From the NCBI GenBank assembly GCA_019894715.1, contig JAGXOA010000204.1, positions 51,179 to 115,178 on the forward strand: a stretch of 64,000 nt of DNA, in the 5' to 3' direction. Within the stretch, counting starts at the first letter, position 1. Every line of letters starts with the position of its first letter. The stretch comes from Promethearchaeota archaeon (GTDB lineage Archaea > Asgardarchaeota > Lokiarchaeia > Sigyniarchaeales > SOKP01). Of this stretch, positions 17,433-60,586 are shown piece by piece. The notes beneath the pieces are model-generated. The model had not been told where the DNA came from, made no database searches, and worked only from the letters and a program-made list of their open reading frames with translations. Both the position numbers and the translations under genes were made by a program.

Positions 17433-18365
17433 TTAGGACTTATTTGCAAAATTATTAATAAAATCTTCAAGAATATTATGAATAAGTTCATCCAGCTTAA
17501 TTTCATTAAAACTCTCAGAGAGAACTACAAGATAAGTTAGATTTGATCTAAGAAATTTTAATCTAGAAATTTTGACAATTCTTATTTTATCATTTGATTT
17601 GAATAAATGGCTCTCATTATATAAATATGAATCCAGTTTATTTTCTTCCCATAATCGATAAAAGATAACAAAAGAATCATAGATGAGATTTATTTTATTT
17701 TTTTGAGATTTTGACTGGGTAATGACTTTATTTTGGTCATCAATTACCAAACAAAGTACATTTGAATAATCTTTAATTTGTTTTTCTAAAATTTTTTTAA
17801 TTTTAGAGGTTTTCTCTGAAAAACTACTAAGAATTTCAGAGAAAGTGTTATGAATACTATAAATAAATTCTTGCTTGATACTTGTAAAATATATATCTGG
17901 TTTAATTTTTAGATTAATCAAATTTTGAATCTGATCTGTCAGTAAACTAAGATTTTCTTGAAGTAATTGGGGATTAAGATCAATTTTATTATAGATTAGA
18001 ATCAATTTGCTTTTACTATTTATTTTCATTATAATTTTATAAATATTTTCTATTTCTTCAATAATTTCTTGTGATATCTCTCGTATTGATTCATAATCAA
18101 ACATATAGATTACAATATTAGCTCTCTCAAAAGCTTTTATTTGTTTTTCCCCCTCCTTTAAGAAACTATTAATTTCCTGACCTGAAATATCAAAAATACT
18201 TAAATTAATATCTAACCAATTGTAATCAGTAGTTTCTATTCCACAAGTTGGTTCTAATGATTCTTTTAATAATAATTTTGGATTTGAATTCTCAAATATT
18301 ATTTTTTTTAGGCTTGTTTTTCCCACACCAGCTCTACCAATAAAAAGAATTTTATTTATTATGAT
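17433..18365 (-). CDS. Rag/Gtr1-like small GTPase with C-terminal roadblock-like domain; 5' end extended beyond the ORF-track start
   Basis: G1 GRAGVGKT (its G-R-A-G codons at 18327-18338 lie upstream of the GTG the track used), G3 FDISGQ, G4 YNKIDL. Overall it resembles RagA/Gtr1 (KILFIGRAGVGKTSLKKIIF..., VIYMFD). The C-terminal ~130 aa has an alpha-beta-beta-alpha-beta-beta-alpha pattern. The frame is closed by TGA at 18369-18371, leaving only ATC/ATA/ATT as possible starts. Confidence 0.7.
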   Translation of the reverse strand: MIINKILFIGRAGVGKTSLKKIIFENSNPKLLLKESLEPTCGIETTDYNWLDINLSIFDISGQEINSFLKEGEKQIKAFERANIVIYMFDYESIREISQEIIEEIENIYKIIMKINSKSKLILIYNKIDLNPQLLQENLSLLTDQIQNLINLKIKPDIYFTSIKQEFIYSIHNTFSEILSSFSEKTSKIKKILEKQIKDYSNVLCLVIDDQNKVITQSKSQKNKINLIYDSFVIFYRLWEENKLDSYLYNESHLFKSNDKIRIVKISRLKFLRSNLTYLVVLSESFNEIKLDELIHNILEDFINNFANKS

Positions 18366-20623: not shown

Positions 20624-21493
20624 TTATTTACGACAATCTTTAGCTCTCAAGTAGTTTAATTTCTGTAAAGTTTCTTCTGGTGTATTTCTTTGCTTAGATT
20701 TTATGTTTCTATTCACTTGTCTAAGAAATTTTATCGCTTTTTTCTTTCCATAAATGATATTTTGAATTAGTTCTTCTTTATTATTTCCTCCAGAAATAGT
20801 AAGTGCCGTTTGAAAGCTTTGAGAGGGTTGTAAAGTTCTAAATTCTATTTGAAGAGCAGATAAGATTTCTCCAGGAGTATTGATTAGGCTATTAGATAAT
20901 TTCTTTTTTGTTTCATTAATAGTAAATTCATGAGTTAGACAAGTTTCATAGTGAGTTGATTTTGATATTAGAGAGAATCCTGCATGTAAGCCAGTAGGAT
21001 CATATTGAAATATTATATCAGAGGAATTATCATAGTCAGATAAATCATTATCATAGCCATCTAAGCCGTTAATATCAAAATCAAACACAAAATATATATT
21101 AAAATCATAGAAATTGTATTTTGAATAGTTTTTAAAAGTAAAATATGTATTGATATATGGTAAATTTGGCTCGTAGAAGATATCTATATATAATCTAATG
21201 AACTGATCTTTTTCTATTATTGGTATTGTAGAATTAATTTTATTTTCTTTAGTATTGCGTTTTAAATATTCATAGAGATTAAAATCTAGTGTTATTCTAT
21301 CGATAGTTTTTCCTTTTCTACTATTAATTAACTTATATATTGGTGTAGGTTCTATATTTTTAAGTACAACATGGATTGGTTTAAAATGATCCTCATTTAT
21401 TGTAAAACTTATCCATGGTCCTGCATATTCTTGTCTTGTAGAATATAAGATTGGTTTATTATTATATGTTAATTCTTTTACAGAAAATCCCAT
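20624..21493 (-). CDS. Hypothetical protein (beta-rich, unknown family)
   Basis: 289-aa intact ORF downstream of the Roadblock-GTPase gene on the same strand. No motif recognised. Confidence 0.5.
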   Translation of the reverse strand: MGFSVKELTYNNKPILYSTRQEYAGPWISFTINEDHFKPIHVVLKNIEPTPIYKLINSRKGKTIDRITLDFNLYEYLKRNTKENKINSTIPIIEKDQFIRLYIDIFYEPNLPYINTYFTFKNYSKYNFYDFNIYFVFDFDINGLDGYDNDLSDYDNSSDIIFQYDPTGLHAGFSLISKSTHYETCLTHEFTINETKKKLSNSLINTPGEILSALQIEFRTLQPSQSFQTALTISGGNNKEELIQNIIYGKKKAIKFLRQVNRNIKSKQRNTPEETLQKLNYLRAKDCRK

Positions 21494-21664: not shown

Positions 21665-22624
21665 TTATTTTCTTCCTAATACTTTACTTGCCATATATGC
21701 AAATGCATCATGTACGTTTTCTCCAGTCCTTGCAGAAGTAAGAATATAATTATATCCAAATTTGTTAGAGATTTCCTTTATATCTTCTTCTGTAACGACA
21801 ATTTTATCTGTTAAATCGCTTTTATTTCCAACTATCATCATGGGTATATTATCTTCTATAGAATCTAAAATATCATCATGCCATTTTTCTACATTTAATA
21901 ATGTCCTCTCTCTAGTCCGATCTATCACAATTATCGCACAGTGAGCACCATTATAAAAATTCTTTCTGTAATTACAGAAATCTGCCTGACCAGCAACATC
22001 CCAAATAATAAAATTCACTATTGTTTTATCAGAGAACTTGTATGTATGTTTAGTTATATCTACTCCAATTGTAGCGGTATAACTTTCTTTGAATTTCTTT
22101 TTAACAAACCGTCTTATTAATGAAGATTTTCCTACTTGAAAATCGCCTATAAGGACTAATTTTGTTGAAAATTCACCTTCTGGGAATTTTCCACTACGAG
22201 TTTGAGAAAGTACTTTGATAATTTCAGGTATCTCTAAGCTAACATTTTCTTTTCTTTCTAATATTAATTCTATTTTAACAGCAATATGTTCAGAATAAAC
22301 CTTTAATTTAACATCTGGGGTTTCTGGCTGAACTAAAGTAGTCAATATTGAATTTTGGCCTTGTGAGCAAAATACAAATTTTTTATCTCCTGTTGTAGTA
22401 ATATTAAAAAATCCACTTTCAGTATCAAATTCTCTCTTTATTCTTTCAATATAGCTATCTATCATTGAAGATATTGCACCCATAACCGCATCAGAATCTA
22501 CGTCAGGCTCTTCTTTATGTTCTGAGGCGATAATTAAGCCATTTTTATCAACAATAGCAACAGCAATTATTCCTTCTACATGATCAATATAATTTTTTAA
22601 TAGTACATTTAAAGCATTTTCCAT
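21665..22624 (-). CDS. Fusion: N-terminal Roadblock/LC7 (MglB-like) domain + C-terminal Rab/Ras-like small GTPase
   Basis: N-terminus: HVEGIIAVAIVDKNGLIIASEH...DAVMGAISSMIDS...ILTTLV (Robl/LC7 pattern). C-terminus: G1 GDFQVGKSSL, G2 T in YTATIGVD, G3 WDVAGQ, G4 GNKSDL, G5 TSARTG. Confidence 0.8.
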   Translation of the reverse strand: MENALNVLLKNYIDHVEGIIAVAIVDKNGLIIASEHKEEPDVDSDAVMGAISSMIDSYIERIKREFDTESGFFNITTTGDKKFVFCSQGQNSILTTLVQPETPDVKLKVYSEHIAVKIELILERKENVSLEIPEIIKVLSQTRSGKFPEGEFSTKLVLIGDFQVGKSSLIRRFVKKKFKESYTATIGVDITKHTYKFSDKTIVNFIIWDVAGQADFCNYRKNFYNGAHCAIIVIDRTRERTLLNVEKWHDDILDSIEDNIPMMIVGNKSDLTDKIVVTEEDIKEISNKFGYNYILTSARTGENVHDAFAYMASKVLGRK

Positions 22625-22735: not shown

Positions 22736-23656
22736 TTATGCATTTTTTATTGAGATCTTATAGATCTCTTGTGTTATTTTTTTATATATTTTCTCTAATA
22801 CAATGGCAAATTCTTTGGGATTTTCTAAATTATCAGGTAAACCTAAATTCTCTAATGTCTCTATGTATTTTCCAGGTTTTCTAAAATGAAAAGTTATTTT
22901 ATCTTGATTTTCAATAAAATTCTTCTTATTTTTAAATTCTTGGATAGATATTTTAGGAACATTAAAGGAATAAAAATCTTCAACAATTTTCTCTTTTTCT
23001 AATTTTAAAGCTATACTTTTTTCAGAAATATCATGATACTTTCCAATCTTTAGGTCTTTAAGTAATTCTTTTTTCTTTTTCCCTCTAATTTTTAACAATA
23101 TTAATGGATCATAATCTAATACCTTAGATATATAAAGTATTGTCGCTGCAATATGTTTACAAGGAATTGCTTCATCAGGACAAGAACAAGAAGCATTTAA
23201 AACTTCAGATACTTCTGGAAATAATGAATGATTATTTTTTTCGAAAATTTCAATAATTCCTTCTGTTAGTTTTCCTTGTAATAATATCATTAAATTTAAT
23301 AAATTACTTCCAAGTTCTATTATAATTTTTTGCCAATCATCTTGAGGAATTATATTAAATGATACTTTAACTCTGTATGGTGTTGGTGCTGTTCCTTGAA
23401 CTAATGCAAATATCTGTCCTTTCTTTATGATAAGATTATTGATTCTCTCTTCTTCTTTTGCATACTGAATTCCACGTCTCATTCTATAAGGGCGACCAAT
23501 TTTTAGAATAGAGTAAATCCAATTTTTCCCCCAGGAAGTCTTAGCATAATTAATAAGATCTTTTTTAATTTGATTTATTTCCGCTTGTTTTTCTTTTTTG
23601 TCTGTGGTAAACTCTTTATTCTTAGAGTTTTTATTATAGTTTTTTAAGTCTCGCAT
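22736..23656 (-). CDS. SWIM zinc-finger protein (SNF2-helicase-associated)
   Basis: 306 aa. CSCPDEAIPCKHIAATILYI is the CxCx(n)CxH SWIM motif. It lies immediately downstream of the SNF2 helicase on the same strand. Confidence 0.75.
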   Translation of the reverse strand: MRDLKNYNKNSKNKEFTTDKKEKQAEINQIKKDLINYAKTSWGKNWIYSILKIGRPYRMRRGIQYAKEEERINNLIIKKGQIFALVQGTAPTPYRVKVSFNIIPQDDWQKIIIELGSNLLNLMILLQGKLTEGIIEIFEKNNHSLFPEVSEVLNASCSCPDEAIPCKHIAATILYISKVLDYDPLILLKIRGKKKKELLKDLKIGKYHDISEKSIALKLEKEKIVEDFYSFNVPKISIQEFKNKKNFIENQDKITFHFRKPGKYIETLENLGLPDNLENPKEFAIVLEKIYKKITQEIYKISIKNA

Positions 23657-23680
23657 ATTTCTATTTTCACATATATTTTT

Positions 23681-26600
23681 TTATAAATTCAAAGATATCA
23701 ATTCTTTTATTTTATCATTATCTAATTGGGAGAGCCATGATTCTCCACTTGTAATAATTGAATTTGCTAATTCTTTTTTCTCTTCTATAAGTTCATCAAT
23801 CTTTTCTTCTATAGTTCCAATAGTAATAAATTTATAGACATTGACATTTTTTGTTTGGCCAATTCTATAAGCTCTATCTGTTGCTTGTTTCTCTACTGCA
23901 GGATTCCACCATCTATCATAATGAAATATAGTTGTGGCTTTTGTAAGATTTAATCCTGTTCCACCTGCCTTAAGAGAAAGAATTAATATAGGAGAACTAT
24001 TAACATCATCAGATTGAAATTCTTCTATTATTTTCTTTCTATTTTCAGCAGAAATACTTCCATGAAAATAAAGAATAGGAAATTGATATTTGAAAGTAAG
24101 GATCTGTTCTAGTAAATCCCCCATCTGAGTGAATTGAGTAAAAATTATACTTTTTTCATTATTATTGATGACATTATCTAACTTTTCTAATAACCTTTCT
24201 AATTTATGAGATTGAGAAATAATTTCTTCAAATTCCTTTTTGGAAAGATTTGTTTTAAGAGATTTTTTTAAATATTGGTATGGATGATTACAAATTTGTT
24301 TAAATTTGGTTAATAATCCTAATATAAATATATTTTTATTCTTTTTATTTGAAGCATTATCATTAATTTGAGCAAGAGCTTCTTTGACTATGCTTTTATA
24401 TAAAAATAATTGAATTTTGCTCAGGTCTGTATAAATTTTCATCTCGTTTTTTTCAGGGAGATCTTGTATAATAGATTTATCTATTTTTAATCTTCTTAAA
24501 ATAAAAGGGGCAATAATTTTTTTTAATTTTGAAATAGCATTTTTATCAGAATATCTTTCGATTGGAATAATTATATCTTCTTGAAATTCTTTTCTATCAC
24601 CTAATAATCCAGGATTTAAAAATTCAAAAAGAGTCCACAGCTCAATAAGACGATTTTCTATTGGAGTACCACTTAAGCATACTTTATATTGGCTTTGTAA
24701 TTGATAAATAGCTTTAGTCTGTTGAGTACTATAATTTTTCATATTTTGAGATTCATCTACAATTATTCCGGTAAAGGGGATCGTTTTTAATAGATTGATA
24801 TCATTCCTTATCGTTGCAAAGGAAGTTAATATTATACTATGAGGAAATAAGTTTTTAGTAAATTCTAATATATTTTTTACTCGATTAGTACCATGATGAA
24901 GTATAACATCCAGATTTGGTGCAAATTTGTTTAATTCATGTTTCCAATTATATAATACTGAAGTAGGACAAATAATCAATGTACTACCAAAATCTTTAGG
25001 GTAGTTTTCTTTGAAATATAATAGCAATGCAATTATTTGTATTGTTTTCCCTAAACCCATATCATCTGCTAAACATAATCCAAAATTTAATTCACTCATA
25101 TTAACTAGCCAAGTTAGACCATCTTTTTGATAAGATCTTAGTTTTCCTTGGAAAGATTTAGGAGGATTTATTTTAGTGAAATTTTTTAAAGATTTAATTC
25201 TATTGACTATTTCATCAAATTGACCTTCAATTAGGACATCATAATTAGTTCCTCCTTCTTCTAATTGTGCTTCTCCAGATAAACCCAATTTAAGAGCATC
25301 CACATAATTAATATTACCCTCTAATTCATTAAACCCTCCAGAAGAGTTAGAAGGATTAAGAATCTTTTTTAAGTTATTGATATCTTGTTGTTCTACTAAG
25401 ATCCAATCTCCTTTCCAATTAATTAATGGCTGGTTTGAATCAATAATATCCTTTATCTCATCTTTTTCTAAAGTATCATTCCCAAGTTCAATCTGCCATT
25501 TATAATTTAAAATGTCATCAATTTGAAATATAGGATTTAAAACATTGGAATTACTTATTTTCTCTTTTTCTTTCTGTGTGGTAATAATAATTTTAGTAGA
25601 TAATTTTTGTCTACCACCTATATTAAAAACATCTGGTAAAATTATGTGATATCCACTTTGAATCAATAACTCTTTTGGAAAACTAAGAAAATTCATTACT
25701 TCATTAGAATTAACTAAAATATCCTCAGGAAATGAATTATTAAGTGCTTTCTTTATTGGAGGATATATTACTGTTGCCAGATAGAGACTTTTTAAAATAG
25801 ATTCAATAAGTTCTTCTTTATTTTGGATTCGGTCTAAAACTTTAGATGCTATTTTTTTACCAATCCAAAAATCTTTTAATGAAATTAAATCCATTGTATC
25901 TTCTGTAGAAATATAAAACTTTAAAACCCAATCTTCCTTGTTTTTTTGAGGATATTCTAATTTTATTGTGAGCCTTATTCCATATTTAGCTGTTGATATT
26001 TGAATAGAGTTAGTCCAGTTATTTATGAGTTTAGGAATAATTGACTCGTGTAATTTTACAATATTGAATGAATTTTGCCTTTTAATTAAAGATTTTAAGA
26101 ATTTATAGTCCCAACTTAAATTTGATTCTCTATTTTTTTCTTTTATTATATCTAGATTGTAAAACTCCTCAAATGTTTGAAATTTTATAGATTTTAATAT
26201 ATATCTGATGAGTAAATCTCCAACATTTTTAAAATAATGAGAAAAAATATAAGAATTATGCCATAATTCATCTGTATATTGATTTTCTCTGTTTTTGCTT
26301 GGTTTTTTTAAATTTTTAAAACTTGCAGGTAAATTAAATGCTTGCCATGAACTATTACTCAATATATAATTAAATCTTTCATTATCAAGCTCTGATTTAA
26401 GAATTATTTGCCATTTGCTTCTAAATTTATCATCTCCTTCCTTTTCAAAATGAGGAATAAAATTACCTCTATTTAAAATCTCAAAGACTAATTTAGTTAA
26501 TAATGCCCATGTTTTAACAGAATCAGTAAAATGGACAAATAATTTGTTTCTATTATTACCTTCAAATATCTCTAATTTATTTAGGTATCTTGCTGCAGGT

Positions 26601-26890
26601 ATTAAGGGTAAAACTTTTGCTGTAATCTCTCGAATTTCGAAAAAATCTCCAACTAAAAATGCTAAATTTATTTTACATGATACCAGAGTATCAATAGGAA
26701 TTTCAGGAAAAGATTGAGAAATTTCCATTGCTAAATTCCCTTCTAATGAGGAATTGTTTATCCATAAGATAAAAAAGCTTGATTTCTTAGGGATGTTTAT
26801 TTTCTTTGAAAGAATGGTGAATTTACTTGCCTCACTATTCCAATATTCTGAAGGAATATACGTTAGTTGTAAATCTGGCTTTAATTTCAT
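23681..26890 (-). CDS. SNF2-family helicase/translocase
   Basis: 1069 aa. Motifs LADDMGLGKTIQ (I), DESQNMKN (II), LSGTPIENR, LKAGGTGLNLT and QATDRAYRIGQ (VI), plus a long N-terminal SNF2-associated region. Confidence 0.9.
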   Translation of the reverse strand: MKLKPDLQLTYIPSEYWNSEASKFTILSKKINIPKKSSFFILWINNSSLEGNLAMEISQSFPEIPIDTLVSCKINLAFLVGDFFEIREITAKVLPLIPAARYLNKLEIFEGNNRNKLFVHFTDSVKTWALLTKLVFEILNRGNFIPHFEKEGDDKFRSKWQIILKSELDNERFNYILSNSSWQAFNLPASFKNLKKPSKNRENQYTDELWHNSYIFSHYFKNVGDLLIRYILKSIKFQTFEEFYNLDIIKEKNRESNLSWDYKFLKSLIKRQNSFNIVKLHESIIPKLINNWTNSIQISTAKYGIRLTIKLEYPQKNKEDWVLKFYISTEDTMDLISLKDFWIGKKIASKVLDRIQNKEELIESILKSLYLATVIYPPIKKALNNSFPEDILVNSNEVMNFLSFPKELLIQSGYHIILPDVFNIGGRQKLSTKIIITTQKEKEKISNSNVLNPIFQIDDILNYKWQIELGNDTLEKDEIKDIIDSNQPLINWKGDWILVEQQDINNLKKILNPSNSSGGFNELEGNINYVDALKLGLSGEAQLEEGGTNYDVLIEGQFDEIVNRIKSLKNFTKINPPKSFQGKLRSYQKDGLTWLVNMSELNFGLCLADDMGLGKTIQIIALLLYFKENYPKDFGSTLIICPTSVLYNWKHELNKFAPNLDVILHHGTNRVKNILEFTKNLFPHSIILTSFATIRNDINLLKTIPFTGIIVDESQNMKNYSTQQTKAIYQLQSQYKVCLSGTPIENRLIELWTLFEFLNPGLLGDRKEFQEDIIIPIERYSDKNAISKLKKIIAPFILRRLKIDKSIIQDLPEKNEMKIYTDLSKIQLFLYKSIVKEALAQINDNASNKKNKNIFILGLLTKFKQICNHPYQYLKKSLKTNLSKKEFEEIISQSHKLERLLEKLDNVINNNEKSIIFTQFTQMGDLLEQILTFKYQFPILYFHGSISAENRKKIIEEFQSDDVNSSPILILSLKAGGTGLNLTKATTIFHYDRWWNPAVEKQATDRAYRIGQTKNVNVYKFITIGTIEEKIDELIEEKKELANSIITSGESWLSQLDNDKIKELISLNL

Positions 26891-27605: not shown

Positions 27606-29480
27606 TTATTCAAAAAAGTTTTCAATGTATTCTCGATAATTGTTTTCTATAGAATAAAGATCATAAATATCATAATCAATTTCCTTTTGGATTTTCTCTT
27701 TTTCTTCCTTTCCATTATTGTCATTCATCTTTAGTATTTTTATAACATTATTTTTTATTTTTAGTGCTTTTACTCTTTCATTTTGATCCTCAGGAATCTT
27801 AATTGGTAAATATCTGATTTTTTCAATTAATATGCGAGGAAATAGTTTTTTATAAGAGCCAAACGATTTAAGAAAATAAAATGATAACAAATGTGAATTA
27901 ATTAGACCAAGGAGATAATGATTATTGAATTCAATAATGCTTGAATCCTTTATCTTTAGATTATAGAAACTTTGCGAGCATAAAAAAAGATTTTCAACAT
28001 AAGTGGCACATATTAAATTACTTTGGCTAATCTGTCTAATTATAATCCTGTTAATATAATTATCAATATTTTTGTATTGGATTCCATCTTTTTTTCTATT
28101 TATATATTTATATTTGGTTATTGAATACCTATTTATTGAATATATAAATGGCATATAATCTTTTAATTCTTCTTTAGATGGATGATCTTGAATAATTTTC
28201 TCTATTTGAGCTAATTTGATACTTGCACCGCAAGTATTACATTTTCTTTTTTTTTTTGGAAGAGGATAATACTTATTACATTCAATGCAATTAAAGACCA
28301 GTCCTTCCTTAGAAAGTTCTACTCCTCTATTTAGTTTAACAACAAACCTATTATCTCCAAAGAGATGTTTTATTTTAGGAAAATTATGATTTAAATATTT
28401 TAAGATGGTAATGTCATAATTATCTAAATGAATTAAAAATTTATTATCCCATTCATCTAGTTGTGCTTGGAAAACCTTTTTAACCTTTTTAGTCTTGAAT
28501 GTACCTATCTTTATCTTTATTTCATTGTTTTCTCTTAGTTTTTTATCTTTTTCTTTTTGAAGAATGATAATTATATTTGATACCACAGAGTTTTTAAACG
28601 AAGGACCTAAATAAAATAGTTCTTTGATGCATGTTTTCCTTTTTATAAATTCTCTTATAATTTTTCTATTTGAAAGCGCCAATAAAGAATCAGGAACAAT
28701 ATATCCCAATTCTCCTTTTTCTTTTAGGATTTTAATACCTATTTCAATAAAAATTTGATAATAATCATATTGACCTATATTTGTTTCAAAATCCTGATTT
28801 TCAATGAATAGTCTCTGATTTTCAGGAATATCGCGAATGAATAAATATGGAGGATTTCCTACAACATAATCATATTTATTCATATGTAAAAATTCAAGAG
28901 AGCTCTTATTTTCAATATTAAAAAGAGGCAATGAATAATTACCCTCTTTTACAATAATTCTATTATAAAATTTGAATAAAACCAAATATATAGTAATTTG
29001 ACATAATATACACGCAATAGGATTAATATCTATTCCATAAATACTATTTTTTATTTTTATTATAATATTTTTTAATAATTCTGTATCTAAATCATTCATA
29101 TCAAGAACGTTGTATTTTAAACAATATTTTTCAATAAGTCTATGCAGTGCTTCTACTAAAAAATTTCCAGCCCCACAACTTATATCTATAATTTTTTTAT
29201 TTTCAATATCATTTTCAATTGTATATCCAATAGAGGACATGATATAATCTACAATGCTTTTTTGAGTATATACTTCCCCATATTGCTTTCTCTCATAATA
29301 TGGGATTATTTTCTCATAAATTGATCCCAGAATGTAAAATTTAGTATTTATATCGTCAATTAAAGTTTTTTTATATTCATTTATTAAAATATCAACAGTA
29401 TTCTTTATTCTTTGTTTAATATCTTCTTCATTTAAATCTTTAGTATAATGATCAGTAATGTCTAATGTTATCTTGTCCAT
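27606..29480 (-). CDS. N6-adenine DNA methyltransferase, gamma class (Eco57I/TaqI-like) with internal zinc ribbon
   Basis: 624 aa. Motif I IDISCGAGNFLVEA, then motif IV VVGNPPYLF. CIECNKYYPLPKKKRKCNTCG is inserted in the C-terminal half. No nuclease motif seen. Confidence 0.8.
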   Translation of the reverse strand: MDKITLDITDHYTKDLNEEDIKQRIKNTVDILINEYKKTLIDDINTKFYILGSIYEKIIPYYERKQYGEVYTQKSIVDYIMSSIGYTIENDIENKKIIDISCGAGNFLVEALHRLIEKYCLKYNVLDMNDLDTELLKNIIIKIKNSIYGIDINPIACILCQITIYLVLFKFYNRIIVKEGNYSLPLFNIENKSSLEFLHMNKYDYVVGNPPYLFIRDIPENQRLFIENQDFETNIGQYDYYQIFIEIGIKILKEKGELGYIVPDSLLALSNRKIIREFIKRKTCIKELFYLGPSFKNSVVSNIIIILQKEKDKKLRENNEIKIKIGTFKTKKVKKVFQAQLDEWDNKFLIHLDNYDITILKYLNHNFPKIKHLFGDNRFVVKLNRGVELSKEGLVFNCIECNKYYPLPKKKRKCNTCGASIKLAQIEKIIQDHPSKEELKDYMPFIYSINRYSITKYKYINRKKDGIQYKNIDNYINRIIIRQISQSNLICATYVENLFLCSQSFYNLKIKDSSIIEFNNHYLLGLINSHLLSFYFLKSFGSYKKLFPRILIEKIRYLPIKIPEDQNERVKALKIKNNVIKILKMNDNNGKEEKEKIQKEIDYDIYDLYSIENNYREYIENFFE

Positions 29481-29707
29481 GAATTTAATATATTTAATAA
29501 TTATACCTCTGATTTGATTAATATTATTCTAAAAGTTATTGATCTAAAAGAATTGATGATTAAATTATAAAATGTGATAATATAACTATGAAAATTTCAT
29601 ATATAAATTATAAATTTGGATTTTTATTAAAAAATAATATTTTTATAACATAAAGATATATAGAATTTGAATAAGAGATGCAATAATTATCAGAATGAAA
29701 ATAATTT

Positions 29708-30817
29708 ATGATTGAAGCTATAATCTTAATATCAATCTCAATAGTCTTATCAATAGTTGGAATATTTAATTTGTATTATAATCAAGAAAAATATGTAATG
29801 GAAGGTTTAGACTTTACATTATTATTTCTATATTTTATTGATGAAATTGTTTATTTTCTCTTCTTTAATTTGTCTTTTGAGACTGTTATTAGTATTAACA
29901 TGGCAATTTTCTTTTATAAAATTTCTATCCTTATAAGAATTCTTAAACTAATATTATTAGGCTCAATTCATAGTTACATATTATTCCAAACCAAAATAAG
30001 ATACTTACCTGCGTTTATTTATTGCTTTTTAGGTGGGATAATTGGAGTGCAATTATTTATTTTAGATGCTTTTGATGTTTCTATTATAGAAAATCATTAT
30101 TTTTTCATTTTAAAAGATCAATTATTATATTCACTTTTACTTATCTTTAATATTTTAATAATTGGATTTATGATATTTACTCAAATCAGATGTAATTCGA
30201 ATATAACTTTTGGAAAAATGAGAAAACTATTTAATATGTGTGTAATCCATTATATATTGAATATAATTGTATATATATTCTACTTTTTTTATCCAAATTA
30301 CAATTTAAGATACCTATACTCAATATTTTTTCTTAGTTTCCTTATTTTTACTAATTATCTCAATATCAAGAATTTTGAATTCTTTATTGTTGTTACAAAT
30401 AAGATATTTGATTTCTCAGTATTCCATAGATCGGGTGTATTATTATATTCCTATAATTTTGAAAAAGGAGAAGAAATTGAAGACTCCATGTTAAAAGGAT
30501 CTATTCTTATAGGGATAAATCATATTCTAGCTAATTTTATAGATAAAAAAGAAAAATTAGACCTTATTAAAATGCAAGATAGAGATATTACTTTTGAATT
30601 TAATTCGGAATTAGGATATGGGATATTATTGATAGCCAGAAATAACAATAAAATAATAATAAAAGCAGTAAAATTATTTATGAATAAATTCACACTTGAA
30701 TTTCGAGATTTATTGACCAGAATAAATAAAGAAAGAAAGATTTTTGATACCTCAGAATTTAGTAATACTAAGAATATAATGGAAGAATATTTTTGGTCTT
30801 TTCTCCAAAAAGAATAA
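29708..30817 (+). CDS. 7-TM membrane module fused to a C-terminal longin-like domain (paralog A)
   Basis: 369 aa. Seven hydrophobic helices span the first ~225 aa. The soluble tail IFDFSVFHRSGVLLYSYNF...SILIGINHILANF...LDLIKMQDRDITFEF..GYGILLIARNN..IIIKAVKLFMNKFTLEF...NIMEEYF has a beta-beta-alpha-beta-beta-beta-alpha-alpha pattern like AP-sigma/SRX/longin domains. Confidence 0.6.
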   Translation: MIEAIILISISIVLSIVGIFNLYYNQEKYVMEGLDFTLLFLYFIDEIVYFLFFNLSFETVISINMAIFFYKISILIRILKLILLGSIHSYILFQTKIRYLPAFIYCFLGGIIGVQLFILDAFDVSIIENHYFFILKDQLLYSLLLIFNILIIGFMIFTQIRCNSNITFGKMRKLFNMCVIHYILNIIVYIFYFFYPNYNLRYLYSIFFLSFLIFTNYLNIKNFEFFIVVTNKIFDFSVFHRSGVLLYSYNFEKGEEIEDSMLKGSILIGINHILANFIDKKEKLDLIKMQDRDITFEFNSELGYGILLIARNNNKIIIKAVKLFMNKFTLEFRDLLTRINKERKIFDTSEFSNTKNIMEEYFWSFLQKE

Positions 30818-30894
30818 TGGTTATGTTTTTCTTATTCTTTTTTTCTATAATCAAAAGTTTATTAACTATAAACACTAATTAATAATCTAATATA

Positions 30895-32013
30895 ATGAAC
30901 AATGCATTATTGATATCCTTAAACATTGGAATATTATTATCTATAGGTTTCAGTATTATAGTTATATTTTATTTAATTCTAAATCATATAAAATATGGTA
31001 CAAAATTTATTTCAATATTATTTATCTCAATTATTTTTATTGTTGGTATTCTTTTTCAAATTATTCTATTTTTTTCTTCAGAATTTTTTTTTACAGAACT
31101 AATTAACAGAATATTATTCAAATTTGTAATCGTTATTGAAGCGATATCCCTACTGATTGTATCTATTGCATTTAGTTTACTAAGACAATATGGAAAGATT
31201 CCAATGTATTCATTATTATTATTTATATTTATTTTTAGTTTATTGATTGGTACATTGATATCTGAAAACTCAGTCCTTGTTCAGGTTTTACTTGACTCTT
31301 CAATTAAATATTCTTTTAATAATGCCACTAAGATTATAAGTCTTACATATAGCGCACTTATCATAATATTTATAATTCACAACATAAGAATTATTAAAAC
31401 AATTACTCCCCTTAAAAAATTCATTAATGGGCTTATTATATATTCAATAATACTGTTTTTTTCTATAATTCTTTTTTTAATTTATATTATTACAGAGATT
31501 TTGGAAGTTATATTTGCATTTCTTTTTATTTTATGGTTTTTAATTATTATAACTGGAATAATTATCATTGTTAAACCCAGAATGTTCTTGAGTTTTACAA
31601 ATAAAATTTATTTTATTCATATTTATCACAAGACAGGAATTCTATTGTATTCCTATAAATTTAAGAAATCATTGGAAACAATTGGAGAATCTAAAGTGTG
31701 GGGTAATATTTTAATTGGACTTAATCATATTCTTTCTGAATTCACAAATAAAAAAGATCAAATAGATGTTCTTAAAACAAAAAATGCAGATATTTATGTT
31801 AATTACAATAATAAATATGGTTTTGCTGTTCTGGTATTAACTAATCATAAAAACTCATATATTGAAAATTGTGTGAATATCTTAACCAAAGAGTTTAAAG
31901 AATATTATGAGGATGAATTATTAGATTTACAAGATATCAATAAAATAATTAATGTCTCAGAATTTAAAGAAGCAAAAAAAATAATTGAAAAAAGTTTTAG
32001 TCTTTATTTATAA
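30895..32013 (+). CDS. 7-TM membrane module fused to a C-terminal longin-like domain (paralog B)
   Basis: 372 aa with the same architecture. The tail IYFIHIYHKTGILLYSYKF...WGNILIGLNHILSEF...IDVLKTKNADIYVNYNNKYGFAVLVLTNH...IENCVNILTKEFKEYY aligns by eye with paralog A. Confidence 0.6.
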   Translation: MNNALLISLNIGILLSIGFSIIVIFYLILNHIKYGTKFISILFISIIFIVGILFQIILFFSSEFFFTELINRILFKFVIVIEAISLLIVSIAFSLLRQYGKIPMYSLLLFIFIFSLLIGTLISENSVLVQVLLDSSIKYSFNNATKIISLTYSALIIIFIIHNIRIIKTITPLKKFINGLIIYSIILFFSIILFLIYIITEILEVIFAFLFILWFLIIITGIIIIVKPRMFLSFTNKIYFIHIYHKTGILLYSYKFKKSLETIGESKVWGNILIGLNHILSEFTNKKDQIDVLKTKNADIYVNYNNKYGFAVLVLTNHKNSYIENCVNILTKEFKEYYEDELLDLQDINKIINVSEFKEAKKIIEKSFSLYL

Positions 32014-35042: not shown

Positions 35043-35795
35043 TTATTGTTCTGGTTCTTGCTCTTCCTCAACTATTTCAGATTCATTAATAATTTTACTC
35101 TTACCATTTGTCTTTTCTAGTAATTCAGTAAGGATTACATTATTAAATGACATAAGCATTCGTGGAGTGTATCCTTCCGCTAAATAATTACCATCATCCA
35201 CTTCTTCCTTCAAGGGAAACAATTGTTTTTCCATAATACTTGATCCCATATACTCTTTTTTATATTCTCTGTATCCATAGATCTTATTCTTAACAATTAC
35301 CATTTTTCTCTCATATCCTTCTGGTAATCCTGTTTTTTCTAAGATTAGCAAAATTTTCTCTCTCGATAATGAATCAAGTAATTGTAGATCTTTTTCTGTT
35401 CCTTCATAGGAAGGACCTTCTTGAATATGTTCATAGTCTATTTCCTTCTCAAGACCAGTCATAATCTTAAATGCCATAGTCTCATCCCCCTCATCCACGG
35501 CTGTTATTTTATATGCAATAGCATATTGATCCCTAATTTTAGGAGCGATTTTCGCAGCAACAAATTTCATTCTTGTTGTTACATTATTTCCATGCCAGAT
35601 CCATACACGATATCTTTTTGGATCGATAAATAATGTGATAAAATCAGAATCTAATAAATCAAACAATAAAACATCTTTTTCAATTTCTAATTCTTGAAAA
35701 TCTTGTATTTCATCATTAAATTGAAACACGACGATTTTTTCTTCTTCTTTATCAGATATCTGACTTTTTTTAACTGATTGTTTTTGATTTGACAT
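35043..35795 (-). CDS. Two-domain gelsolin/cofilin-like actin-binding protein
   Basis: 250 aa. LLDSDFITLFIDPKRYRVWIWHGNNVTTRMKFVAAKIAPKIRDQY...ITAVDEGDETMAFKIMTG matches the gelsolin-repeat pattern (D.Y.l......iy.W.G..s...e...AA........v..v.EG.E...F). A second, more divergent repeat follows, then an acidic tail. Confidence 0.6.
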   Translation of the reverse strand: MSNQKQSVKKSQISDKEEEKIVVFQFNDEIQDFQELEIEKDVLLFDLLDSDFITLFIDPKRYRVWIWHGNNVTTRMKFVAAKIAPKIRDQYAIAYKITAVDEGDETMAFKIMTGLEKEIDYEHIQEGPSYEGTEKDLQLLDSLSREKILLILEKTGLPEGYERKMVIVKNKIYGYREYKKEYMGSSIMEKQLFPLKEEVDDGNYLAEGYTPRMLMSFNNVILTELLEKTNGKSKIINESEIVEEEQEPEQ

Positions 35796-59480: not shown

Positions 59481-60041
59481 TTAAATTGCTGTCCACAATT
59501 GAGCTCTACCTTTCTTCCCAGTACGTTTTATTTTACGATCACTTTCTAAATCTGAGATTAATTTCCATATTTCAGAATTAGTGAGCTTAAAATATTTTCT
59601 CAATTCTGGTGTAGACATTTCAGTATCATTTAGAATATTTGTTATTAATCTTTTGACTTCTTCAACTGTATCAACATCAGAACTTTTAGAAACACCTTCG
59701 ACATCTTCATCATCATCAGATTCCATCTCAACCATTATACGAGAAGCAATTTTATTTAGATTTTTTATATTTGTTTCGATTCCTCTTGGTTTCATAAAAA
59801 GACAACATAATTCTAAATCTTTTGGAAAAGCAACAACATAAAAATCATCATATAAAATAGCTCTTGGTTTTTTTCCTGCATTACCTCCACGAAATGATAA
59901 ATAAAAATTAACAGCAAAATCATCTAAATTAACAAAATCATTTATTTCATCATATTTTTTCTTCCATTTTAGAAAAGGTCCATTAATTAGATCAAAACCG
60001 ACTAAAGCTACAGAAAATAATTCTTTTTCATTAAAATTCAT
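59481..60041 (-). CDS. Longin-like N-domain + acidic linker + C-terminal winged-helix protein, coupled to the Arf-like GTPase
   Basis: 186 aa. ELFSVALVGFDLINGPFLKWKKKY...FAVNFYLSF...RAILYDDFYVVAFPKDLELCCLFMKP...NLNKIASRIMVEM has a beta-beta-alpha-beta-beta-beta-alpha pattern like uDENN/longin. Then comes DDDEDVEG, then TPELRKYFKLTNSEIWKLISDLESDRKIKRTGKKGRAQLWTAI (wHTH-like). Its ATG overlaps the GTPase stop as ATGA (60038-60041). Confidence 0.55.
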   Translation of the reverse strand: MNFNEKELFSVALVGFDLINGPFLKWKKKYDEINDFVNLDDFAVNFYLSFRGGNAGKKPRAILYDDFYVVAFPKDLELCCLFMKPRGIETNIKNLNKIASRIMVEMESDDDEDVEGVSKSSDVDTVEEVKRLITNILNDTEMSTPELRKYFKLTNSEIWKLISDLESDRKIKRTGKKGRAQLWTAI

Positions 60042-60586
60042 TTCATTAACCTCTTTCTTTTTATTACTTTATTTAGTTCTTTTTCAATTATTTGCATTAA
60101 TTGCATTCGATCTTCAGAACTAATCGCAGTTAAGCCAATAGTTCTTGTATGGAGTACATCTTGTACTCTTTTAAAGTTCATTCTTCCATCTTTTTTACAT
60201 AAATCTTGTTTATTTGCAATTGCAATTATAGGACAATCATCAATCATAATATTTTTTGCCTCATCAATAAGTTGTCTTGAATTTAAAACATTTTTGGGAG
60301 TAGAATCAGTTACAACAAATATTAGATCTGAACCGACAACAAAATCTTTTAAATATGTTTTGATATACTGAGTTTGACCCCCAAAATCCCAGACCTTTAA
60401 ATTAAATCCCCCAAATTCAACCGTTCTTAGATCAAATCCTGCAGTTGGCACATATTTCTTTGTTATCTCTTTTTGAGCTAACATTTTAACCATAGTCGTT
60501 TTACCTACTGCTGGAAATCCAATAATAGATACTTTAATTGTATCATTAAGATAAGATGTTTTTAGCATGATTGAGTTTATATGCAT
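60038..60586 (-). CDS. Arf/Arl-like small GTPase
   Basis: 182 aa. G1 GFPAVGKTT, G2 T in PTAGFD, G3 WDFGGQ (Arf-type WDxGGQ), G4 ANKQDL. Confidence 0.75.
   Translation of the reverse strand: MHINSIMLKTSYLNDTIKVSIIGFPAVGKTTMVKMLAQKEITKKYVPTAGFDLRTVEFGGFNLKVWDFGGQTQYIKTYLKDFVVGSDLIFVVTDSTPKNVLNSRQLIDEAKNIMIDDCPIIAIANKQDLCKKDGRMNFKRVQDVLHTRTIGLTAISSEDRMQLMQIIEKELNKVIKRKRLMK

Follow-up and report, generated by a model that had tools for sequence, protein, structure and literature searches.

The locus described here raises the question of what a longin domain does when it is built into a polytopic membrane protein. Two adjacent genes, here called A and B, lie on the forward strand of a 64,000-nucleotide (nt) stretch of Promethearchaeota archaeon DNA (contig JAGXOA010000204.1, positions 51,179 to 115,178), referred to below as the window. 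Each encodes a module of seven transmembrane (TM) helices followed by a cytoplasmic domain with the longin fold, an architecture that can be stated with high confidence. The two longin domains may together form a platform for a small GTPase, with input from the seven-helix (7TM) modules; this reading is given a probability of roughly 0.45. The features of the gene pair are as follows, with protein lengths in amino acids (aa).

29481-29707, between the divergent Eco57I-like methylase gene and A: intergenic region of 227 nt, presumed promoter region of A
29708-30817, forward strand: gene A, an open reading frame (ORF) of 369 aa, A-type orthogroup, upstream of its partner in every pair
29708-30373, forward strand: seven-helix membrane module of A (residues 1-222), collinear with the TM module of B
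30374-30814, forward strand: cytoplasmic longin domain of A (residues 223-369), 36% identical to the domain of B
30485-30538, forward strand: central helix alpha1 of A (about residues 260-277), SMLKGSILIGINHILANF
30818-30894, forward strand: A-B spacer of 77 nt, in which a T-rich run and an AT-rich, TATA-like stretch can be read
30895-32013, forward strand: gene B, an ORF of 372 aa, B-type orthogroup
30895-31575, forward strand: seven-helix membrane module of B (residues 1-227), from AlphaFold2 helices and positive-inside counts
31273-31317, forward strand: extracellular beta hairpin of B (residues 127-141), from the AlphaFold2 model
31576-32010, forward strand: cytoplasmic longin domain of B (residues 228-372), from Foldseek and profile matches
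31687-31743, forward strand: central helix alpha1 of B (residues 265-283), ...WGNILIGLNHILSEF, the most conserved stretch of the family

Paralogy and tandem arrangement

The first-pass annotation of the window had described two adjacent same-strand genes of 369 and 372 aa, and the ORFs are exactly as claimed; the peptides that it quoted all lie in A. Over the C-terminal ~144 aa the two proteins share 36% identity (BLASTP, E 3e-28), and their hydrophobic halves were not aligned by BLASTP. When a profile of 27 A-type orthologues was compared with one of 40 B-type orthologues by hhalign, the TM halves were found to be homologous with 99.8% probability (E 1.8e-30) over 215 collinear columns. Because the profile comparison aligns the hydrophobic halves as well, A and B are, at the level of sequence, full-length paralogs, and the tandem paralogy that had been proposed stands. 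A-type orthologues were recovered by profile search at E 1e-33 to 1e-46, and the domain of A matches two hidden Markov models of the family, A2 (E 1.9e-53) and A3 (E 1.6e-43). A search of the window for more family members returned none beyond A and B. The family was detected at 87 loci, of which 80 carry the tandem arrangement (79 as A then B, one as A-A-B); the others are either cut off by the end of a contig or represent other subfamilies. Since the tandem is kept across loci, the duplication is old and both copies have always been retained. The A-A-B case is a run of three tandem 7TM-longin genes in one genome (L022, 6888-10432).

Fold of the cytoplasmic domain

In the AlphaFold2 model of B the soluble domain comprises strands 238-245 and 250-255, helix 265-281, strands 292-294, 299-305 and 310-316, and C-terminal helices 321-337, 339-345 and 360-367. 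This gives the order beta-beta-alpha-beta-beta-beta-alpha-alpha(-alpha), which agrees with the strand and helix order predicted in the first-pass annotation, sets a five-stranded sheet between a single helix and a pair of helices, as in longins, and is the same in a domain-only model (predicted local distance difference test, pLDDT, 76). When the full B model was compared with the PDB using Foldseek, the top matches were exclusively longin proteins, among them AP-1/AP-2 sigma, zeta-COP, the TRAPP subunits Bet5, Trs23 and sedlin, Mon1-Ccz1, SRX, Ykt6 and Fuzzy-Inturned. For the domain-only model all of the top 50 matches are longin proteins, so that the likeness to longins, AP sigma included, that had been seen by eye is borne out. 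The best of these by E-value is SRX (2fh5_A, E 3.8e-4), and the best by TM-score are Sec22b (0.66/0.74) and Ykt6 (0.62/0.65); AP2 sigma, TRAPP and Mon1-Ccz1 proteins are in the same set.

Sequence comparison leads to the same group of proteins. Profile A3, built from 48 diverse domains and broader than A2, was run against 177,635 PDB sequences, and its five best matches are TRAPPC1, Trs23 and Bet5 (E 0.002-0.04). A match of the narrow profile A2 to a PNPase fragment among the PDB sequences is helical and was dismissed as spurious. Scanned member by member against Pfam, the family matched Sybindin in 10 of 48 members (best 6e-4), Intu_longin_1 in 7 of 48 and 14 of 65 (best 5e-4), Fuz_longin_1 in 6 of 48 (best 8e-6) and, weakly, Robl_LC7 in 4 of 48; two members also matched SRP-alpha_N weakly. 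Pfam and NCBIfam scans of A and B themselves gave no family match. Because these sub-threshold matches all converge, the domain is assigned from its sequence to a divergent, unannotated longin family that is closest to the longins of Rab guanine nucleotide exchange factors (GEFs), namely those of TRAPP (Bet5/Trs23), Ccz1/Inturned and Mon1/Fuzzy. A fold unrelated to longin and roadblock domains, or membership in a known transporter or enzyme family with no GTPase association, had been named as the outcome that would count against the first description; the fold is that of longins, and no Pfam or NCBIfam family covers either protein.

Several narrower assignments were considered and set aside. 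The Roadblock/LC7 fold has the permuted order alpha-beta-beta-alpha-beta-beta-beta, whereas the present domain ends in two to three helices after beta5, and no roadblock protein occurs in the Foldseek top 50. A division of A and B into a Mon1-like and a Ccz1-like protein is unsupported, ten A-type orthologues having given no Pfam match. The proteins are not longin SNAREs of the Sec22, Ykt6 or VAMP7 kind, since the longin domain closes the protein, with no coiled coil after it, and is preceded by a polytopic membrane part.

The structural matches do raise the possibility of a component of trafficking or targeting, that is, a SNARE-like longin, an analogue of a coat-adaptor small subunit or an SRX-like anchor. 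SRX, the AP sigma and mu N-terminal domains, zeta- and delta-COP, Sec22b and Ykt6 are among the top matches, and the two weak SRP-alpha_N matches point the same way. These matches are, however, those of a shared fold, with identities of 7-18%; both proteins end at the domain, with no SNARE or coiled-coil segment after it, and no coat large subunits or GTPase of the signal recognition particle (SRP) are encoded nearby. Such a role is therefore considered very improbable.

Topology and relationships of the membrane module

The model of B was computed from a 65-sequence alignment (A1) and has a pLDDT of 84 and a predicted TM-score (pTM) of 0.78. It places the TM helices at residues 3-29, 37-63, 68-97, 104-122, 143-170, 174-200 and 203-226, with the beta hairpin 127-141 between TM4 and TM5. 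Among 65 homologues the mean number of lysine and arginine residues is 2.7-2.9 on loops 1-2, 3-4 and 5-6 and on the segment after TM7, and 0.03-1.2 on the other side; the N-terminus is therefore predicted to be outside and the C-terminus inside, which makes the soluble domain cytoplasmic. The seven helices and soluble domain claimed for both genes were thus recovered, with a soluble domain of ~145 aa where about 130 had been given. Conserved polar residues are found in the outer half of the 7TM module (S61, S/T67, E68, N71, K76, S126, Y139, Y197, R206 and W214), and conserved motifs occupy the loops on the cytoplasmic side (KYG; Y99-K101-P103; K174).

The identity of the module was searched for among known families. 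The TM module of A has no Pfam or NCBIfam match. Foldseek aligned the bundle over 260-283 columns with SSTR2, the TAS1R TM domain, CaSR and cryorhodopsins, at target-normalised TM-scores of 0.42-0.52, a level of match to be expected of any up-down bundle with seven TM helices. Assignment to the G-protein-coupled receptors (GPCRs) was rejected: no 7tm Pfam family was found among the 65 members even at E 10, the consensus end of TM3 reads ...SFLKEYKKIP and has no DRY motif, and TM7 lacks NPxxY. Microbial rhodopsins and heliorhodopsins were rejected as well, as there is no Bac_rhodopsin match and no conserved lysine in TM7, where R206, L208, I210 and W214 are the conserved residues. A and B are like GPCRs and microbial rhodopsins in having seven TM helices with the N-terminus outside and the C-terminus inside; they differ in showing no sequence similarity to them, and no heterotrimeric G protein is involved here. 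The "primitive GPCR-like logic" suggested at first is accordingly dropped as a statement of homology.

The conserved polar and charged residues inside the bundle (E68, K76 and R206) would also suit a transporter or channel, in which the 7TM part moves or senses a solute and the longin domain serves as a cis-regulatory or oligomerisation module with no GTPase. The domain would then be likened to the CBS, USP or PAS/GAF-type tails of transporters, and longins do fall within the wider PAS/GAF-like fold group (PMC4917890). No similarity to a Pfam or NCBIfam transporter family was found even at E 10, and in structure the bundle is matched best by receptors and rhodopsins rather than by carriers. 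A SWEET or PQ-loop carrier was ruled out, the internal 3+1+3 repeat of that kind having a probability of 0.2% when the TM profile was aligned with itself by hhalign. Conservation is also far lower in the TM part than in the longin part, whereas a carrier specific for a substrate would show the reverse. The remaining evidence on this point comes from relatives of the pair.

Distribution and domain fusions

Close homologues of B number 88, all unnamed or "hypothetical", and B is 100% identical to the hypothetical protein P0001 from a metagenome-assembled genome of "Candidatus Lokiarchaeota archaeon"; taxon labels are those of the submitters. Only one of the 88 carries a non-Asgard label: P0007, 47% identical, was assigned to "Candidatus Izemoplasmatales bacterium" from a 2.7-kb contig, which probably reflects the misbinning of an Asgard contig and not a true presence in bacteria. 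A profile search of 1.84 billion representatives (50% clustering) returned 375 proteins at E <= 1e-3, and B-type relatives are present in at least 124 GTDB species genomes. As to the phyletic profile that had been proposed across Asgard genomes, every named relative in the profile search is Asgard (Lokiarchaeia/Promethearchaeota and Hel-, Hod-, Hermod-, Odin- and Thor- labels). The G+C content of the window is ~25%; an artefact of AT-rich sequence is ruled out by this deep conservation.

Clustering of the domain sequences separates the A/B group from no fewer than five other 7TM-longin subfamilies and from one mixed group, in which the domain follows a major facilitator superfamily (MFS) transporter of 11-12 TM helices, follows a PAS-HisKA-HATPase_c kinase, or stands alone. 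About 12 MFS-longin fusions were found (among them P0158, P0170, P0174, P0182, P0185 and P0210). In all fusions to membrane proteins the domain lies on the C-terminal side of the membrane part, and hence in the cytoplasm. A fragment of one distant MFS-like member is labelled "Roadblock/LC7/MglB family" in IMG.

That the same domain is found C-terminal on MFS transporters speaks for the transporter or channel explanation given above, as does the surrounding of the distant loci, most of which lack GTPases (L088 lies beside two large peptidases, L086 beside unknown genes). Together with the points against it in the membrane module, this leaves a transporter or channel as an unlikely explanation, though one of some weight.

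The kinase fusion raises a further explanation, in which A and B would be 7TM receptors whose longin domain serves as an adaptor into two-component or chemotaxis-like signalling and not to a GTPase. One member (P0232) is a PAS-HisKA-HATPase_c protein carrying the domain, a distant 7TM-longin gene (L087) lies near an MCPsignal gene and two response-regulator genes, and many fusions of NPRL2-like longins to two-component domains are reported from Asgard archaea (Liu et al., 10.1101/2020.10.19.343400). No two-component genes occur, however, in the conserved A-B neighbourhood at 80 loci, and even the histidine-kinase fusion is encoded with a Roadblock gene and a small GTPase gene 1.5-3 kb upstream of it, so that its locus leaves room for a GTPase. 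This explanation is regarded as improbable.

Gene neighbourhood and small GTPases

Neighbourhoods were counted at 80 loci, with offsets taken from B and a GTPase scored when it lay within 10 kb. The genes concerned are as follows, the conserved block first.

21665-22624, reverse strand: GTPase with Roadblock (residues 13-95) and Rab-like (155-315) domains, candidate partner; 55 of 80 loci, typically -4.7 kb from B
20624-21493, reverse strand: orphan protein of 289 aa; 52 of 80 loci, typically -5.8 kb from B
27606-29480, reverse strand: Eco57I/TaqI_C-type orphan DNA methylase (Pfam); 68 of 80 loci, about -3.4 kb from B
Upstream block, forward strand: N6_N4 methylase; 36 of 80 loci
Conserved block, forward strand: gene A, typically -1.2 kb from B
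17433-18326, reverse strand: Gtr1/RagA-like GTPase, 297 aa (Pfam, 4e-14); orthologues close to A-B at only 2 of 80 loci
60038-60586, reverse strand: Arf-like GTPase, from the window scan

The candidate partner at 21665-22624, syntenic with A-B in Lokiarchaeia-type genomes, contains Pfam Robl_LC7 and Ras, its orthologues have a median identity of 56%, and the best PDB match of its G domain is Rab1B (5e-35). The 289-aa orphan encoded directly downstream of it is retained along with it, at 52-55 of 80 loci; it has no Pfam or PDB similarity and may be a regulator or effector of this GTPase. The three small GTPases reported for the window were all found again (a Gtr1/RagA-like protein, whose gene ends at 18326, the Robl_LC7 and Ras/Rab protein, and an Arf-like protein). 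Asgard genomes encode about a hundred small GTPases each (PMC4917890), and three in a 64-kb window therefore carry little weight. The Gtr1/RagA-like protein is long enough for a C-terminal roadblock domain like that of eukaryotic Rags. The Arf-like gene overlaps a downstream ORF of 186 aa (59481-60041, reverse strand, no Pfam match) by 4 nt, and the two are probably a two-gene operon in which the Arf-like GTPase is joined by an unknown partner.

The divergent arrangement of the Eco57I-like methylase and A is kept in 68 of the 80 loci; the methylase is probably syntenic with A by descent and not functionally linked to it. An MFS-longin gene of a distant subfamily likewise has a divergent N6_Mtase neighbour (L088, 4528-5952), which may be a coincidence or an old duplicated block. 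Genes for a SWIM protein, an SNF2 protein and IGPD lie between the candidate GTPase and the Eco57I-like methylase in the window. The first two (22736-26890, reverse strand) encode a SWIM zinc-finger protein and a 1069-aa SNF2/DUF3670 helicase, and since they occur at only 4 and 7 of the 80 loci they represent a lineage-specific insertion into the block. The upstream block is relatively stable, which speaks only weakly for a function. Downstream genes vary more; LeuA is encoded there in 18 of 80 loci, and a gene for an acidic orphan of 250 aa with no Pfam match (35043-35795, reverse strand) lies downstream of A-B, being found in 52 of 80 loci at a distance of 1.5-10 kb.

For the distant subfamilies a metagenome scan yielded one 2.5-kb locus, and linkage was judged on seven individual distant loci. 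The sole distant locus with a GTPase nearby is that of the histidine-kinase fusion P0232 (L089, 5180-9494), where genes for a stand-alone Robl_LC7 protein, a small GTPase and a 147-aa orphan precede the fusion at a distance of 1.5-3 kb.

Proposed mode of action

The most conserved stretch in both A- and B-types is the beta1-beta2 hairpin with helix alpha1, IYHKSGILLYSY...WGNILIGLNHILSEF. Residues G270, G275, N277, I279 and F283 of alpha1 are invariant in the family, and fixed type-specific differences between A and B lie at the start and end of the conserved stretch (W269/K, N271/S and E282/N). Longin and roadblock domains are known to dimerise side by side via beta3 and alpha1 (Levine 2013, PMC3747258; Tran 2024, PMC10933270), and the face with the two alpha1 helices is the dock for small GTPases in MglB, TRAPPC1/C4, the Rag roadblock domains and SRX (Levine 2013, PMC3747258).

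The longin domains of A and B would pair in the same way, side by side through beta3 and alpha1. Fourteen TM helices would keep the resulting longin platform permanently anchored on the cytoplasmic side of the membrane. The alpha1 face of this platform would dock a soluble partner, most probably a small GTPase, which could be recruited, held or regulated there; among the candidate clients, the syntenic Roadblock-Rab-like GTPase (21665-22624) ranks first. The 7TM modules, in turn, would pass an external or membrane signal to the platform. Heterodimerisation of A and B is slightly favoured, with the obligatory tandem and the conserved alpha1 giving indirect support for a side-by-side dimer. A small GTPase as the client of the platform is put forward more tentatively, at a little short of even odds. 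A sensing role of the 7TM part is suggested by the position of its conserved residues, polar ones outside and loop motifs on the cytoplasmic side. The repeated attachment of the domain to membrane proteins, seen again in no fewer than five other 7TM subfamilies and in some 12 fusions to MFS transporters, is likewise consistent with the proposed platform.

Several observations weigh against this mode of action. Longin domains also serve roles independent of GTPases, namely in SNARE regulation and as coat subunits. The longin similarities at the sequence level all lie below curated thresholds, and the A-type proteins, for which ten orthologues were scanned against Pfam, gave no match at all. Helix alpha1 is the part of both models with the lowest confidence (pLDDT 49-63); one possibility is that it becomes ordered only in a complex, which such a value would fit. 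The block that contains the GTPase is shared by two DNA methylases with no plausible functional tie, and it tolerates insertions (IGPD, TrmO, a glycosidase, SWIM and SNF2). In the subclade of the window (L006, L010, L015, L016 and L022) the GTPase is at least 9 kb off or absent from the 10-kb flank. The linkage may thus reflect inherited gene order rather than function. Neighbourhood profiling had been proposed in the first-pass annotation as a check, and its outcome for a GTPase partner is mixed: synteny with the Roadblock-Rab-like GTPase holds for the A-B pair, at the 55 loci counted above, and does not extend to the distant TM-longin subfamilies, where six of seven loci have no GTPase nearby. 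As a rule, the GTPase genes of Asgard archaea do not share operons with genes for longin or roadblock proteins (Tran et al., PMC10933270), and neighbourhood is therefore a poor test either way. A link between the A-B pair and a GTPase is, on balance, plausible but unproven.

A more specific version of the proposed platform can be formulated, in which A-B is a ligand- or nutrient-gated longin heterodimer, embedded in the membrane, that acts directly on a Rab/Rag-like GTPase by controlling its nucleotide state or its stay at the membrane, and in which the fused 7TM- and MFS-longins are a covalent "Rosetta stone" of eukaryotic transceptor coupling. This version is speculative and is judged to have a low probability.

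Significance

Asgard archaea possess dozens of longin and roadblock proteins. To our knowledge almost nothing is known about which Asgard regulator serves which GTPase, or about how any of them is tied to the membrane. Asgard GTPases lack the lipid anchors of eukaryotes (PMC10933270), and a longin platform welded to a polytopic membrane protein and kept as a pair would be a concrete, testable answer to this anchoring problem; the family also names a specific candidate GTPase. In published surveys 41 longin domains are counted in Lokiarchaeum and 130 asCOGs in the superfamily (PMC10933270; 10.1101/2020.10.19.343400; PMC4917890), and fusions of Asgard longin or roadblock domains to GTPases and two-component domains are already reported there (PMC10933270; 10.1101/2020.10.19.343400). 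No account of a polytopic membrane protein with a fused longin, or of the A-B pair, was found in Pfam, NCBIfam or the searchable literature (the supplementary tables of Liu et al. lay outside the search), in agreement with the first-pass annotation, to which no described longin domain fused to a 7TM module was known.

If the coupling is true, membrane sensing and longin-based control of GTPases were already joined in the archaeal relatives of eukaryotes, and if the covalent "Rosetta stone" version is true, the logic of transceptor-GTPase signalling predates eukaryogenesis. If the coupling is false, the family still defines a new longin subfamily of wide distribution, together with an orphan 7TM module, both of them absent from current databases.

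Comparison with known systems

The published Asgard longin and roadblock repertoire comes from the same organisms and superfamily and shows the same habit of domain shuffling (PMC10933270; 10.1101/2020.10.19.343400). It differs in consisting of soluble proteins and of GTPase or two-component fusions; no polytopic-membrane fusion or conserved tandem pair is described in these sources, as far as they were searched. The bacterial MglA-MglB system and the conservons (CvnA-D) likewise combine a platform of the roadblock superfamily with a Ras-like GTPase, and conservons add a membrane sensor. Their platforms have the roadblock topology with an N-terminal helix, are separate polypeptides and share an operon with the GTPase, whereas those of A and B are longins, are fused to the membrane module and are not in an operon with a GTPase.

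In the SRP receptor the longin-fold domain SRX of SR-alpha, the best Foldseek match of the present domain, docks the Arf-like SR-beta at the membrane. There the TM anchor belongs to the GTPase, and the longin is a soluble monomer; in A and B the arrangement is reversed, with an anchored longin in a conserved pair. The tri-longin Rab GEFs (Mon1-Ccz1, Fuzzy-Inturned and HPS1-HPS4) resemble A and B in being paralogous longin proteins, which form heterodimers there. They appear among the structural matches (5ldd, 7q3d/7q3e and 9rs8), and Intu_longin_1 and Fuz_longin_1 are the commonest weak Pfam matches. Each of the tri-longin subunits has three longins and is soluble and recruited by lipids, whereas A and B have one longin each and are permanently inserted in the membrane.

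The TRAPP subunits Bet5 and Trs23 (TRAPPC1 and TRAPPC4; Sybindin) share the longin fold and give the best PDB profile matches, together with matches to Pfam Sybindin. These two paralogous longins pair as a platform for Rab1 (PMC3747258), and the syntenic GTPase of the A-B block is most similar to Rab1. The TRAPP longins, however, are soluble subunits of a multi-protein complex whose GEF activity needs Bet3, whereas those of A and B are covalently tied to the 7TM module and their similarity lies below the family thresholds.

The logic proposed for A and B is also met in eukaryotic transceptors. SLC38A9 with Ragulator-Rag and GPR155/LYCHOS with GATOR1 are, like PQLC2, polytopic transceptors that recruit GTPase regulators. 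PQLC2 with C9orf72-SMCR8-WDR41 couples a solute-sensing multi-pass protein to a longin regulator of GTPases (PMC7039192). The likeness is one of functional analogy, the TM modules having no shown homology. In the eukaryotic systems the coupling is non-covalent and lysosomal, whereas A and B each join the two parts in one polypeptide, which is located in the archaeal cell membrane.

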